Shown here in pieces: positions 6,223 to 16,794 of a DNA stretch of 64,000 nt. Position 1 is the stretch's first letter; each line of letters starts with the position of its first letter. Below the pieces are notes generated by a model. That model worked only from the letters and a program-made list of their open reading frames with translations, made no database searches and was not told where the DNA came from. A program made the position numbers and the translations under genes. Origin of the DNA: an archaeon. GTDB lineage: Archaea; Nanobdellota; Nanobdellia; Pacearchaeales; GW2011-AR1. The DNA is taken from the NCBI GenBank assembly GCA_030605415.1, contig JAUWIJ010000005.1, forward strand, positions 2,375 through 66,374. The letters run 5' to 3'.

Positions 6223-6356
6223 ATGAAATCAAAGATTTCATTTACGGTGTTCGGAGTTCGGGTTGTCGGTGTTACCCTCACAAATATAAAGGAAAATCAG
6301 GTTGGGGCAGGCCCTCGGGGCTTGGGCAACTGTTGTTATGGGAGGTTATTGTTAAA
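6223..6356 (+). repeat. mosaic intercistronic element, copy E1 (hairpin + heptamers + core + tail)
   Basis: ATGAAATCAAAGATTTCAT hairpin directly after the L23 TAA; GGTGTTC-type words; core TACCCTCACAAATATAAAGGAAAATCAGGTTGGGGCAG at 6273-6310; GGGGCTTGGGCAACT tail; GGGAGG before the L2 ATG. Confidence 0.9.
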
Positions 6357-7055
6357 ATGGGAAAGAGAATAATTCAACAGCGACGCGGAAGGGGTGGACA
6401 TACTTATAAGACCAGAGAGAAAGCTGGGAAAATTAGGCCAGGTTATGCTTCTGGTTTGAAGGGTGAATTTGAGTGTGTGAAACTGATTGCGTCGGTTGGG
6501 CATTCTGTTCCAATTGCAAAGTTCATGAATAAGGGCGGTGAGATCTTCCATAATTTTTCGGTTGATTTATTATATGTTGGGCAGAAAATTGGCATTAATG
6601 GAAATAAGCCGGGTGATATTGCGAAGCTTGGGGATTTGAAGAATGGGACTGAGGTTTTTAATATTGAGTATAATCCTAAGGATGGAGGAAAGTTTGTCAG
6701 AACTGGTGGGAATTTTGGGACAATTATGGCGAAAGAGGGAGATGTTGTTAAGATTATGATGCCGTCGAAAAAGGTGAAGAAATTTAACGTGAATTGCAGG
6801 GCGACTGTTGGTCGGGCTGCGGGAGATGGTAGAATGGATAAGCCGATTTTGAAGGCGGGTAAGAAGTTTTATATAATGAAAACAAAATCTAAATTATGGC
6901 CGAGAACTTCTGCTGTTAAGATGAATGCTATTGACCATCCGTTTGGTAGTGGTCGGGGGAAAAGAATGAAAAGTAAAATTGCTAAGAGAAATGCGTCGCC
7001 GGGTAAGAAGGTTGGTTTAATTAGACCGAGAAGAACAGGGAGGAAGAAAAGATGA
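6357..7055 (+). CDS. rpl2: 50S ribosomal protein L2 (uL2)
   Basis: MGKRIIQQRRGRGG start, DHPFGSGRGK motif, operon position. Confidence 0.95.
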   Translation: MGKRIIQQRRGRGGHTYKTREKAGKIRPGYASGLKGEFECVKLIASVGHSVPIAKFMNKGGEIFHNFSVDLLYVGQKIGINGNKPGDIAKLGDLKNGTEVFNIEYNPKDGGKFVRTGGNFGTIMAKEGDVVKIMMPSKKVKKFNVNCRATVGRAAGDGRMDKPILKAGKKFYIMKTKSKLWPRTSAVKMNAIDHPFGSGRGKRMKSKIAKRNASPGKKVGLIRPRRTGRKKR

Positions 7056-7154
7056 AATCTTCGATTGCATCTTTTCGGGTGGTCGGTGGTTCGGACGCTT
7101 CGCTGGTCGGTGTTCGGGGCTTGAGCAACTTGACATGGAGGGGGATGAAATAAA
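7052..7154 (+). repeat. mosaic intercistronic element, copy E2 (core-less)
   Basis: ATGAAATC overlaps the L2 TGA; degenerate hairpin; GGTCGGTGGTTCGGACGCTTCGCTGGTCGGTGTTCGGGGCTTGAGCAACT; GGAGGGGG before the next ATG. Confidence 0.9.
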
Positions 7155-7466
7155 ATGGCAATTTTAATGGATGGCATGGAAAGAGAAAGGGCATGTGTTT
7201 CTTATTTGGAATCTCTTGGGGTACTTGATAGTGAAAGTTTATGTCTTGCTGGGCATAAATATATACTTCGTGTAGATGATGAAGATTCTTTTTATCAAAT
7301 AGCAGAAGCTACTGGAGTTGATAGAATTATAAATTATGATGGTGATGGTTTGGATTTTGAGATACAAATTCCATCAAAACCGCGTAACGATACATGGTTT
7401 GTGTTTTTGAGTTATTGCAAAAGTGACGCTTTTTTAAATAAATATAATATAGGGGGAACACAATAA
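7155..7466 (+). CDS. orphan protein inserted between L2 and S19
   Basis: 103-aa ORF preceded by element E2 and followed 2 nt later by the S19 ATG. No family recognised. Confidence 0.5.
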   Translation: MAILMDGMERERACVSYLESLGVLDSESLCLAGHKYILRVDDEDSFYQIAEATGVDRIINYDGDGLDFEIQIPSKPRNDTWFVFLSYCKSDAFLNKYNIGGTQ

Positions 7467-7468
7467 TA

Positions 7469-14604: not shown

Positions 14605-15002
14605 ATTTAGCAAAGAAGAAGAATTTGGCGGCGAAAGTTTTGAAGGTTGGAAGGAATCGGATTGTTTTTGTTAAGGAACATTTGTCTGAGATTAAGGAAG
14701 CGATTACGAGATTGGACATTTTGGATTTGAATAAAAGTGGGGCAATTCAGATTAAGGAAGTTAGCGGTAGGAAAAAAATTGTCAAAAGGAAGAATCGGAG
14801 AAGAGTTGGGAAGGTTAAAAATAAAGTTAATAACCGGAAGGCAGAGTATGTGATAATTACCAGGAAGTTGAGAAAATTTATTAGGGGACTTGTTAGAACT
14901 GGCGCGGTTGATAAAGAGAAAAATAGGGAAATTAGAAAACAGATTCGGGCGCGGAAGTTTAAAAGCAAAAGACATTTAAAAGAAAGTTTGGAGGAATTAT
15001 AA
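14601..15002 (+). CDS. rpl19e: 50S ribosomal protein L19e (eL19)
   Basis: LAAKVLKVGRNRI start and a basic repeat-rich body; operon position. Confidence 0.92.
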   Translation: MNLAKKKNLAAKVLKVGRNRIVFVKEHLSEIKEAITRLDILDLNKSGAIQIKEVSGRKKIVKRKNRRRVGKVKNKVNNRKAEYVIITRKLRKFIRGLVRTGAVDKEKNREIRKQIRARKFKSKRHLKESLEEL

Positions 15003-15568
15003 TGGCAGGATTAAGAATACAAAAACGAAGAAGGAGAGAAAATAGGACGGATTATAAAGTGCGGCGAATTTTGTTGACGTCGGGAATTCCAAGGATAGTT
15101 GTGCGAAGGACGAACAAATATTTTATTCTTCAGGCTGTTGAGAGTGACGAGGCTCAGGATAAAGTTATTGGGACGCTTACATCTAAGGAACTTCTTAAAA
15201 ATGGTTGGGATGCCAAAGCGGGCGGAAGTTTAAAGTCTATTCCTGCTGGATATTTGACTGGATTATTGATGGCAAGGAAACTCAGAACTCAGAAGGGAAT
15301 TACGGGGAAGAAGTCAGAAGTACCCTCACAAATACAAAAGAAAAAGAGGTTGGGGCAGACACTCGGAAGTCAGTTTATTATGGATTTGGGGATGACAAGA
15401 ACGATTAAGGGTTCGCGAGTTTTTGCGGTTGTTAAGGGATTGATTGATGGCGGTTTGGATATTCCTGCAAATGAAAATGTGTTCCCGTCGGAAGAGAGAT
15501 TAAACGGAGAACATTTGAAAGATGATGTTAAAAATATGATTGCGAAAGTTAGGGGAGGGTTGAAATAA
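15002..15568 (+). CDS. rpl18: 50S ribosomal protein L18 (uL18) carrying an in-frame copy of the repeat core
   Basis: RRRRENRTDY, AGYLTGLL and GSRVFAVVKGLIDGGLDIP motifs. About 22 extra residues (GKKSEVPSQIQKKKRLGQTLGS) lie between them. Confidence 0.92.
   Translation: MAGLRIQKRRRRENRTDYKVRRILLTSGIPRIVVRRTNKYFILQAVESDEAQDKVIGTLTSKELLKNGWDAKAGGSLKSIPAGYLTGLLMARKLRTQKGITGKKSEVPSQIQKKKRLGQTLGSQFIMDLGMTRTIKGSRVFAVVKGLIDGGLDIPANENVFPSEERLNGEHLKDDVKNMIAKVRGGLK
15321..15358 (+). repeat. core of the mosaic element embedded in the L18 coding sequence
   Basis: TACCCTCACAAATACAAAAGAAAAAGAGGTTGGGGCAG compared with the consensus TACCCTCACAnATATAAAGGAnAAnCAGGTTGGGGCAG. Confidence 0.85.
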
Positions 15569-15819
15569 TGGGAATTAAAGAAGAAATATATAAAAGTATG
15601 GATGTTGGAACGCCTGCAAAAAAATATGTTGATACAAATACAGTTACTAAAAAAGTAGTTTCCGCTTTAGGTAGAAAGATTATTGGCTTGAATAGATTTT
15701 ATGAAAATGTTCAGGAATGTCACGATAACAAAAATACTTCTGTATCGTCTACTTCAAATATTAGATTATCAAATAGCGCTATAACCCTCAGAAATAAAAT
15801 AATGGGGGCATTTGAATGA
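15568..15819 (+). CDS. orphan protein inserted between L18 and S5
   Basis: TAATG overlap with the L18 stop and ATGA overlap with the S5 start. No family recognised. Confidence 0.45.
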   Translation: MGIKEEIYKSMDVGTPAKKYVDTNTVTKKVVSALGRKIIGLNRFYENVQECHDNKNTSVSSTSNIRLSNSAITLRNKIMGAFE

Positions 15820-16658
15820 TGGCAGAAGAAAAGGAAATCAAGGAAGTTGCGCCGGAGAAACAGTTGAAAGAAATGGAAACCATAGTTGAGGCAAAGGAAA
15901 AAGGGAAAGAAGAAAAGGTTTCAAAAGAATTTGACGAGAAAGCTAAGGTTGCCGAGGGTCGGGGAGAGTGGAAGAGAGAGTCGAGAGAGGAAAGATTCGC
16001 CCGAGAAGCTCAGGTAAAATTGGATAATTGGGTGCCGAAAACTGAATTAGGCAGGGTTACTCGAAATGGAAAGATTAAGAATATTGATGAGATTCTTGAA
16101 GGTGGACAGAAAATTATGGAACCTGAAATTGTTGATTTATTAGTTCCTGGATTGAAAACTGATACTTTGTTTATTGGTCAGGCTAAGGGTAAGTTTGGTG
16201 GTGGCAAGAGAAGGGCATTTAGGCAAACTCAGAAAAAAACTAAGGAGGGTAATGTTTTGACTTTCGGTGTTATGGCTGTTGTCGGTGATGGGCACGGGCA
16301 TGTTGGTCTTGGCTATGGCAGAGCTAGTGAAACTTTACCCGCGAAGGAGAAAGCTATCAGGAAGGCTAAGTTGAATATTGTTAAGATTATACGAGGATGT
16401 GCATCGTTTGATTGTTCGTGTGACGAGGAGCATAGTATTCCGGTTGCTGTTACGGGGAAATGTTCTTCGGTTGTTGTTAATTTGATGCCTGCGCCGCAAG
16501 GAACTGGCTTGGTTGTTAGTGACGAGTTGAAAAAGATTTTGAGGGCGGTTGGAGTTAAGGATGTTTATAGTAAGTGTTCTGGAAAACTGAGGACGACTTT
16601 TAATTCCGCGAAAGCGTGCATGGCTGCTTTGGAGAAAATTGGGGAGGTTCAAATATGA
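15816..16658 (+). CDS. rps5: 30S ribosomal protein S5 (uS5) with a Glu/Lys-rich N-terminal extension
   Basis: FGVMAVVGDGHGHVGLGYGRA and APQGTGLV motifs. Confidence 0.93.
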   Translation: MMAEEKEIKEVAPEKQLKEMETIVEAKEKGKEEKVSKEFDEKAKVAEGRGEWKRESREERFAREAQVKLDNWVPKTELGRVTRNGKIKNIDEILEGGQKIMEPEIVDLLVPGLKTDTLFIGQAKGKFGGGKRRAFRQTQKKTKEGNVLTFGVMAVVGDGHGHVGLGYGRASETLPAKEKAIRKAKLNIVKIIRGCASFDCSCDEEHSIPVAVTGKCSSVVVNLMPAPQGTGLVVSDELKKILRAVGVKDVYSKCSGKLRTTFNSAKACMAALEKIGEVQI

Positions 16659-16794
16659 AATCTTTGATTTCATATTTGCGGTGGTCGGGGTTCGGACGCT
16701 ACCCTCACAGATATAAAGGAGAAACAGGTTGGGGCACACTGTTCGCTATTCGGGGTTCGGGGCTTGGGCAACTTGATATGGAGGTTTTTGGATA
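16655..16794 (+). repeat. mosaic intercistronic element, copy E6 (core-bearing)
   Basis: ATGAAATCTTTGATTTCAT overlaps the S5 TGA. The 42-nt core (starting 16700) lies inside GGACGC^TTCGCT. GGGGCTTGGGCAACT tail, then GGAGGT. Confidence 0.9.

Follow-up and report, generated by a model that had tools for sequence, protein, structure and literature searches.

A family of short mosaic inserts occupies the gene junctions of an archaeal ribosomal-protein cluster, and we consider it probable that these inserts are selfish or neutral repeats that would persist at the stop/start junctions of coupled operons only as translational relays. The DNA in question is a 64-kb stretch of contig JAUWIJ010000005.1 (64,000 nucleotides, hereafter the window; 35.7% GC), whose plus strand carries the ribosomal-protein cluster from L3 to SecY. 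The best database match of its L2 is 93% identical, relatives at 79-82% are named Candidatus Pacearchaeota or Nanoarchaeota, and by these matches the genome is that of a Pacearchaeota-like DPANN archaeon. An initial annotation of the sequence had proposed six inserts within the cluster and three further copies. All were found where it had placed them, and Pfam confirms the genes that flank the six (L23/L2, L2/orphan, S17/orphan, S14/S8, L6/L32e and S5/L30); the orphans beside inserts have no Pfam match. We refer to the copies as c1 to c9, where c1-c6, c8 and c9 make up the full family and c7 is a partial member (Table 1).

The full members align as one family under a formal model. In leave-one-out searches of the window with nhmmer, every omitted copy was recovered, with E values from 1e-6 to 2e-23. 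Set against dinucleotide shuffles of the window, the 15-nt tail GGGGCTTGRGCAACT has six exact matches (0.01 expected), the hairpin ATGAAATCNNNGATTTCAT also has six matches (0.01 expected), and the heptamer pair TCGGTGKTCGG, with at most one mismatch, has 26 (0.5 expected). All of the heptamer-pair matches lie on the plus strand and within elements, with one exception inside the L29 coding sequence, and the modules of every copy are confined to the plus strand. Tandem Repeats Finder reports arrays of period 7-8 within c3, c4, c5, c8 and c9. The module GGACGCTTCGCTGG is unbroken in c2, c5 and c9 (twice) and is split by a 42-nt core in c3, c6 and c7, and c3 and c6 are 90% identical across 142 nt. 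Alignment of the copies and of their orthologs in five related loci (L002, L022, L051, L082 and L089) gives conserved end modules around variable internal ones. The proposal that the inserts share the same ordered modules is therefore sustained as far as a single family, a fixed order and a variable content are concerned; it fails in detail for c4, which has no hairpin, and for c9, whose tail is a variant. Likewise, c8 and c9 stand as additional copies, but c7 has only heptamers, the split GGACGC/TTCGCTGG and the core, lacks hairpin and tail, and is not at a stop/start junction. Nor is the family specific to the ribosomal-protein operon, since copies are also found between ABC permease genes and in the S13-S4-S11-RpoD cluster (c9), and related mosaics occur in 3' flanks.

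What sets the elements apart is their reading frame. Each of the eight full copies is an open reading frame (ORF) of 32-49 codons from the upstream stop to the downstream start. The relay ATG overlaps or abuts the upstream stop in 8/8 copies (ATGA, TGATG or TAAATG). At the other end, the relay stop overlaps the next ATG in c3, c4, c6 and c9 (ATGA or TAATG), precedes it by 2 nt in c2, and lies 6-15 nt past its first base in c1, c5 and c8. Most copies have a Shine-Dalgarno (SD)-like box before the relay ATG and another before the next ATG, the latter a GGAGG brought by the element (in c1, GGGAGG stands 11 nt ahead of the L2 ATG at 6357). In c1-c6 the first box is found in the final codons of the upstream gene, 8-16 nt ahead of the relay ATG, and in relatives with tight junctions that same box serves the downstream gene. 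The relay ATG stands exactly at the ancestral start position, and the displaced downstream gene gets a second GGAGG and start context from the element. The initial annotation was right that start, stop and SD signals for the neighbouring genes are contained in the elements; its view of them as plain intercistronic elements has to be given up, since each full copy is kept as an ORF bridging two genes.

Frame 0 is open in all eight of these copies, frame 1 in none and frame 2 in two. Under dinucleotide shuffling the openness of frame 0 has P = 0.15-0.47 per copy, and the product of these values is 10^-4.6. The relay frames are kept open by stop-free 7-8-nt tandem units and by the common modules, and both indels relative to the closest relative are multiples of three (24 and 42 nt). 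The reading frame of the common modules nevertheless changes from copy to copy: the core gives TLTNIKENQVGAGP in the frame of c1 and c4 and YPHRYKGETGWG in that of c3 and c6, and its TAA-containing frame is never used. Because the same modules are read in different frames, the relay peptide is not conserved.

The behaviour of the junctions in relatives points the same way. We collected the same operon from 88 related contigs and surveyed the junctions of 86 loci. As had been supposed, such junctions are normally tight: most of these loci measure -14 to +2 nt at every one of them, and empty sites therefore exist. At the sites occupied by the window copies, the junctions of relatives span -4 to +2 nt. 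Presence and absence also vary between close relatives. The closest (L002), at ~89% nucleotide identity to the window, is without c1 (its junction reads TAATG) and without c5; its c2 ortholog is 24 nt shorter, its c4 ortholog is without exactly the 42-nt core, and at the c6 site it has a different relay element made of GGGATTTGG units and a GC hairpin. It is also without three orphan ORFs, the L3 insert and the L18 insert. Absence, truncation and replacement of this kind indicate that the elements are not conserved small genes, and the same sequence maintained at every junction under peptide selection was not seen. Recognisable members occur elsewhere, at L6/L32e in L051, at L23/L2 and L30/L15 in L082, at S4e/L5 and S14/S8 in L022, at L30/L15 in L010 and at L2/S19 in L089. 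In the element of L051 the hairpin is altered in a compensatory way and the heptamers form a (GGTGGTC)4 run, and the L089 ortholog of c2 is alike at the ends and different in the middle. Distant members keep the hairpin end and a GACTTGGGCAACTGGAGG-type tail, with wholly different tandem units. Compared across these sequences, the elements are turning over rapidly. Relatives yielded 88 distinct junction inserts of 40-170 nt. An ORF spans 74 of them, as a bridge in 58 and as an in-frame N-terminal extension in 16, where shuffling predicts 22 in total; of the 14 left over, several consist of a tandem pair of such units. Several unrelated sequence families of junction inserts behave alike in preserving an ORF, and the window family is one lineage-specific version of this wider Pacearchaeota habit.

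We propose that ribosomes ending the upstream gene would reinitiate on the relay ORF, cross the spacer, terminate at the next start and reinitiate there. Termination-reinitiation coupling and protection from polarity could thus survive a 90-140-nt insertion that would otherwise break coupling. Gaps of ~20 nt abolish such coupling in both Haloferax volcanii and E. coli (PMC10666635), and in archaea untranslated RNA also gives rise to polarity, an effect ascribed to FttA in a review (PMC12548453). From the gap sensitivity of coupling and from archaeal polarity, we infer that only inserts which pass ribosomes from gene to gene would survive. Slippage of the tandem units, together with recombination or gene conversion among the copies, could produce the element DNA itself, with only the ORF-preserving versions persisting. 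A bolder but unlikely version is that the elements form an active, self-propagating class of mini-ORFs, which would integrate specifically at the stop/start overlaps of coupled operons, raise a 5' palindrome by template switching from the end of the target gene and furnish a replacement SD and start for the displaced gene. If this were true, they would be mobile elements whose niche is the site of translational coupling, and translation through every spacer would be an obligatory operon rule in these archaea.

The hairpin at the 5' end of the elements has a 9-13-bp stem, perfect except in c2, and a 3-nt loop. Its left arm contains the upstream gene's own final bases and stop codon, and its right arm is the exact complement. 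Sources of the left arm include GTAA (L23), GAAAAGATG (L2), CAAAT (S5), GCTG (S4e of L022) and TACTAA (L14 of L043); in c2, whose hairpin is imperfect, the outer stem is formed with native codons of L2. Between c3 and c6 the loop is flipped, from AAA to TTT. Template switching creates or perfects hairpins and inverts their spacers (PMC8794818, PMC8604942). Since perfect arms, a reach into the unique flank and spacer inversion are the published signatures, replication template switching is the likely origin. By this means the upstream gene end would be copied into the right arm, the loop could be flipped, and a palindrome would come to lie over both the stop of the upstream gene and the ATG of the relay. 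In the transcript, that ATG would be buried in the hairpin until opened by a ribosome coming from the upstream gene, so that relay initiation would be restricted to such ribosomes. Among 17 hairpins of the junction type, 11 of 13 pairs are changed on both sides, G-U pairs are limited to the outermost positions of the stem, and pairing holds in 87.8% of cells, versus 66.7% in shuffles; in a set picked for palindromy, this mainly shows differing sequences keeping one design. A hairpin covariance model run over 752 kb returned nothing significant away from such inserts, only the training sites, an ortholog in L049 and a few weak hits.

Two other sequences recall this 5' module. Directly after the stop at 61666, a 3'-flank mosaic of TAGTGAG and AGTTGGT heptamers contains the hairpin CAACATC-AAA-GATGTTG (61684-61712), with the same ATCAAAGAT centre as the junction hairpins. 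At 10977-11010, L24 begins with ATGAAATCAAAATTTAGTAAATC (MKSKFSKSW), an N-terminal extension ahead of the usual KQPRKQ start that is also found in L24 of relatives; it is much like the elements' 5' module and may be an old junction element fused in frame.

Several observations weigh against the relay proposal. Translation of the relay ORFs and reinitiation at their ends are read from sequence only. The repeat units are almost free of A and have no stops in any frame, so that openness is partly compositional, though the shuffles control for that, and the 8/8 open frames are not eight independent trials, as the copies share ancestry. Both c7 and the 3'-flank mosaics use the same modules and bridge nothing, which argues that the modules were not made for relaying. 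The hairpins from which covariation was judged had been picked for palindromy. The single orientation of the elements could reflect replication instead of transcription or translation, given the strong G>C skew throughout the window. This skew is +0.3 to +0.45 where genes are on the plus strand and -0.03 to ~+0.16 where they are on the minus strand, which suggests a replication-strand component besides coding-strand G-richness. Finally, Pfam scans of 50 window ORFs turned up neither a transposase nor an integrase, and target-site duplications are not consistent from copy to copy.

It could be that the elements are adaptive cis-acting RNA or DNA signals, in which the hairpin at the 3' end of each cistron stabilises or processes the polycistronic mRNA or partly terminates transcription, the core provides a TATA-type promoter within the operon, a protein binds to the G/U-rich repeats and the ORF is a by-product; we regard this as unlikely. 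A perfect hairpin right at the stop codon followed by T-rich sequence, the single orientation of all copies and the presence of the same modules in untranslated 3' flanks are what such signals would predict, as is a TATA-like ATATAAAGG in the core ~23 nt from its 3' end, the same spacing at which apparent leaderless promoters nearby have TTTATAAA ahead of the start. The box is, however, destroyed in coding-sequence copies, and as a promoter it is only a lead. By RNA folding the hairpin is the only robust fold in the elements (whole-element z-scores -2.1 to +0.05), which makes both a structured regulatory RNA and sequestration of the SD less likely for this family, and Rfam has no match to the elements either at its gathering threshold or at E<=1. 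The same element is found ahead of genes for different proteins, near relatives either have no element or have unrelated sequence at the same junction, and the ORFs are open above composition-matched expectation. A sub-threshold Rfam hit to ylbH at 43212-43336 was dismissed. A ribosomal-protein autoregulatory leader was also rejected, because one and the same element stands before L2, S8, L32e and L30 as well as before non-ribosomal genes, with neither a conserved fold nor an Rfam match.

The core had been taken for an optional module of the element. It is exactly 42 nt long in nine window copies, with variable flanks and no target duplication, and four of these are outside the numbered copies, at 15321 (inside L18), 43185, 63319 and 63421. 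It is the sole difference between the c4 orthologs of the window and L002, and in another metagenome-assembled genome (MAG), L001, a core is nested within a core copy, in frame inside coding sequence. The L18 insert adds ~26 residues in frame relative to three relatives. Scans for the exact core pattern found one genome (L001) in the GTDB representatives and no match in JGI metagenome contigs or IMG/VR, in collections that do not include the window's own genome. Any stem in the core is at most weak, 7-11 bp, being longer in the intergenic copies with one compensatory change. Judged from this distribution, the core is a separate nested mini-insert that also enters coding sequences, where it would be tolerated under the same rule as its host elements, an open frame. 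Two mechanisms were rejected for it. A bulge-helix-bulge (BHB) mini-intron or bypass is at odds with coding copies that are read through with TAA changed to CAA, and the flanks offer no helix (on inspection, with no formal BHB scan). A strand-specific IS200/605-style mechanism without target-site duplication does not fit a 5' base context of insertion that is not constant.

These properties of the core, a discrete indel nested in its own copy in L001, bring to mind classical non-autonomous transposable elements of the miniature inverted-repeat (MITE), repetitive extragenic palindromic (REP) or palindrome-associated (PATE) type, moved in trans by a transposase encoded elsewhere in the genome and with junctions as the only tolerated sites, an explanation that we find quite improbable. 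The family is multi-copy and dispersed, with presence/absence polymorphism; (G)ATGAAAT stands on both sides of c2 and c9; and short junction elements in relatives are flanked by duplications, 7-14 nt and variable in length, of the start of the downstream gene. On the other hand, c1, c4, c5 and c6 are without such a target-site duplication, no duplication of fixed length is evident, and there is none at the core, upstream of which the sequence is not constant. Terminal inverted repeats are absent, which rules out MITE membership: the 5' and 3' ends of the element are not complementary, the palindrome is limited to the 5' end, and no inverted repeats were found within element bodies. The lack of a transposase among the scanned ORFs also counts here. 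Orthologous elements keep their ends and have the middle replaced, which looks like turnover in place and not like repeated transposition.

That the ORFs are genuine genes for micro-proteins made in step with the ribosomal proteins is very improbable. In favour, every one combines an SD and an ATG with 32-49 open codons, MKSKIS recurs as the N-terminus, and some are annotated by gene callers in relatives. That N-terminus is, however, dictated by the palindrome, and the peptides are low-complexity translations of repeats that use the same nucleotide modules in different frames, with AAATCAAAGATTT in yet another frame in the short elements of relatives; moreover, copies are absent, truncated or replaced in a relative as close as L002. 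As for independent local simple-sequence expansions without dispersal, their similarity due to convergence by mutation bias, the heptamer unit and its number do differ from one junction or relative to another, and in bacteria slippage is known to generate heptameric intergenic repeats (PMC4692102), but GGACGCTTCGCTGG, the 15-nt tail and the 42-nt core in the same order at 6-9 loci (~0.01 expected) and the near identity of c3 and c6 contradict it, leaving it hardly credible.

The analogy to REP units and bacterial interspersed mosaic elements (BIMEs) drawn in the initial annotation captures some features, namely short multi-copy modular elements between the genes of one operon, a hairpin near the upstream stop and differences between strains. 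REP units are 20-40-nt imperfect palindromes that alternate in orientation and are untranslated (PMC2817692), whereas here only the 5' end is palindromic, the orientation is constant, and an ORF linked to the genes on either side runs through each full copy, with translation itself predicted. We therefore rejected membership in REP/BIME: palindromic units are missing from the bodies, all modules face one way, and the elements, being spanned by ORFs, are not expected to be untranslated extragenic DNA. The REP-associated tyrosine transposase (RAYT, IS200/IS605-like) was not found among the 50 ORFs scanned against Pfam in this 64 kb of the genome. The pneumococcal BOX elements (boxA-(boxB)n-boxC) also combine fixed terminal with variable internal modules and can insert into one another (PMC10969869), a likeness of architecture that implies no homology; they are bacterial, unrelated in sequence, not at stop/start overlaps and not bound to be open frames. 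Rickettsia palindromic elements (RPEs) are selfish repeats tolerated in translated sequence by keeping the frame open (PMC10969869), and in-frame coding inserts of this kind are found here as the core in L18, the core in the L001 gene and the repeat run in L29. RPEs are, however, ~100-150-bp palindromes within genes, while the units here are 7-42 nt and mainly at junctions, with the element supplying start, SD and stop. Homology to RPEs was rejected for a 42-nt core with a weak stem, an archaeal host and no Rfam match. The heptameric intergenic repeats of Calothrix/Nostoc and of Xanthomonas (GGGAATC) are similarly G-rich tandem 7-nt units near the upstream 3' end and vary in length among close relatives (PMC4692102); those are plain arrays in untranslated spacers on either strand, discussed as G-quadruplex formers, unlike the head-to-tail units here, which are embedded between conserved end modules and are predicted to be translated whatever their phase. 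Lastly, the elements reproduce at either end the arrangement of the termination-reinitiation pairs (ATGA/TAATG) of archaea and bacteria: a -4/-1 overlap, or a gap of very few nucleotides, preceded by an SD (PMC6728339, PMC10666635). In the known pairs one real gene is coupled straight to another; in the elements, a junk ORF would stand between the two as the relay.

If the elements are relays, they would provide a natural experiment on the dependence of archaeal operons on termination-reinitiation coupling and continuous ribosome cover, in which dozens of independent insertions from unrelated families are tolerated in the cell's most conserved operon only as two-sided ORFs. They would also represent an archaeal counterpart to REP/BIME, BOX and RPE with a distinct survival strategy, and could account for many hypothetical small proteins and for N- and C-terminal extensions of ribosomal proteins in the annotation of DPANN MAGs. 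The hairpins offer clean examples of palindromes apparently template-switched from the end of an essential gene. Literature searches aimed at repeat-borne relay ORFs at archaeal operon junctions found no prior description, in agreement with the initial annotation, which knew of no archaeal equivalent.

Table 1. Coordinates of the junction elements and related repeats in the window
Feature	Position	Strand	Location	Relay ORF	5' hairpin	Core	Other
c1	6223-6372	+	L23/L2	49 codons	6219-6245, 12-bp stem	6273-6314	body 6223-6356; tail 6317-6331
c2	7052-7154	+	L2/orphan	7052-7153, 33 codons	~7046-7076, imperfect	none	
c3	10087-10221	+	S17/orphan	44 codons, ATGA overlap at each end	10083-10109, 12-bp stem, AAA loop	10132-10173	core divides GGACGC and TTCGCTGG
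c4	12865-12990	+	S14/S8	41 codons	absent	12894-12935	
c5	14087-14197	+	L6/L32e	36 codons	14085-14107, 10-bp stem	none	
c6	16655-16795	+	S5/L30	46 codons, TAATG overlap at end	16650-16678, 13-bp stem, inverted loop (TTT)	16700-16741	
c7	20610-20749	+	HIT/EMC3-like intergenic region			20649-20690	partial member
c8	49837-49935	+	between two MacB/FtsX permease genes	32 codons	49839-49865, 12-bp stem with compensatory changes		tail variant; (TTCGGTG)5 run
c9	57399-57509	+	S11/orphan, upstream of RpoD/Rpb3	36 codons	57399-57423, 11-bp stem		variant tail; 23-nt unit TCGGTGTTCGGACGCTTCGCTGT twice
L29 run	9329-9363	+	C-terminal extension of L29				TCGGGGTG/TCGGTGT repeats, translated
L18 insert	15279-15376	+	inside L18			15321-15362	AACTCAG heptamers; TAA changed to CAA
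Second-flavour mosaic	43057-43330	+	convergent 3' flank			43185-43226	GGTCGCTTCGCT and ACCGCTTCGCTCT modules
Second-flavour mosaic	63280-63540	+	downstream of zinc-ribbon gene			63319-63360, 63421-63462	
Untranslated mosaics, similar modules	21163-21250, 24195-24260, 43057-43330, 60019-60096, 61666-61745, 63280-63540		3' flanks				
Short junction element	55293-55402	+	ahead of DUF655 gene				two tandem 55-nt copies
GCACCCAAGGGTGTACCTCCTGCCC..GACAAGGTCGGCAA segment	3832-3890		L3				
GCACCCAAGGGTGTACCTCCTGCCC..GACAAGGTCGGCAA segment	7917-7975		L22 N-terminal extension				
GCACCCAAGGGTGTACCTCCTGCCC..GACAAGGTCGGCAA segment	11366-11396		L24 C-terminus				

With its repeat run, L29 has 82 aa in the window versus 73 aa in L002. 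The mosaic at 43057-43330 also carries AGAACTGAG heptamers together with inverted copies of them. In the short junction element, each 55-nt copy opens with a copy of the start of the DUF655 gene, ATGGCTAAAG. A hidden Markov model of such elements matched mainly its own seeds, orthologous or duplicate copies and one new site in L022, and the group is a loose one. Other families of junction elements, of which ATGATAAATAAAATATTATGCAATGACAAAGTCCTTGCGGATCAAAAATCGGAGGATTTTTGCTAATG is an example, exist in the relatives L005 (for instance at 10699-10778 and 11837-11904), L019, L020, L024, L033, L035 and L089; these form exact bridging ORFs, in which the SD region GGAGGATTTT is paired to AAAGTCCT.

Orphan ORFs of 62-119 aa are also found between the ribosomal-protein genes (4464-4742, 7155-7466, 10218-10577, 13364-13552, 15568-15819 and 17650-18194). 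They have stop/start overlaps on both sides and no Pfam match, and three are absent from L002, which has others at other junctions. A blastp comparison of 78 such orphans from the related loci leaves 70 as singletons. A segment of 30-59 nt (GCACCCAAGGGTGTACCTCCTGCCC..GACAAGGTCGGCAA) occurs in frame in three ribosomal-protein genes, and its L3 copy is missing in L002. Intergenic arrays of GGGATTT/GGTATTT heptamers, interleaved with GGGGAAGGGG-type runs, are found at 2220-2405 and 54313-54450 and are G-quadruplex-like; the first measures 206 nt in the window versus 68 nt in L002. A G-quadruplex is possible for these separate arrays and was rejected for the GGTGTTC units, which have only GG per unit.

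Between SecY and a HIT-family gene, a gene at 19712-20089 matches PF05635 (23S rRNA intervening-sequence protein), the fold family of the Avd proteins of diversity-generating retroelements; the 50 window ORFs that were scanned include no reverse transcriptase. Rfam places a tRNA at 46329-46414 (54 bits, 86 nt) that is not reported by ARAGORN and may be intron-containing or atypical. Finally, a pair of 40-nt repeats (TTTGGGGCA.CTTTTTCTGGAAAAAGATGAGAGTTAACTC) lies at 63668-63797, separated by 71 nt and with 98% identity; each of the two holds a CTTTTTC..GAAAAAG palindrome, and a partial third copy is inverted.

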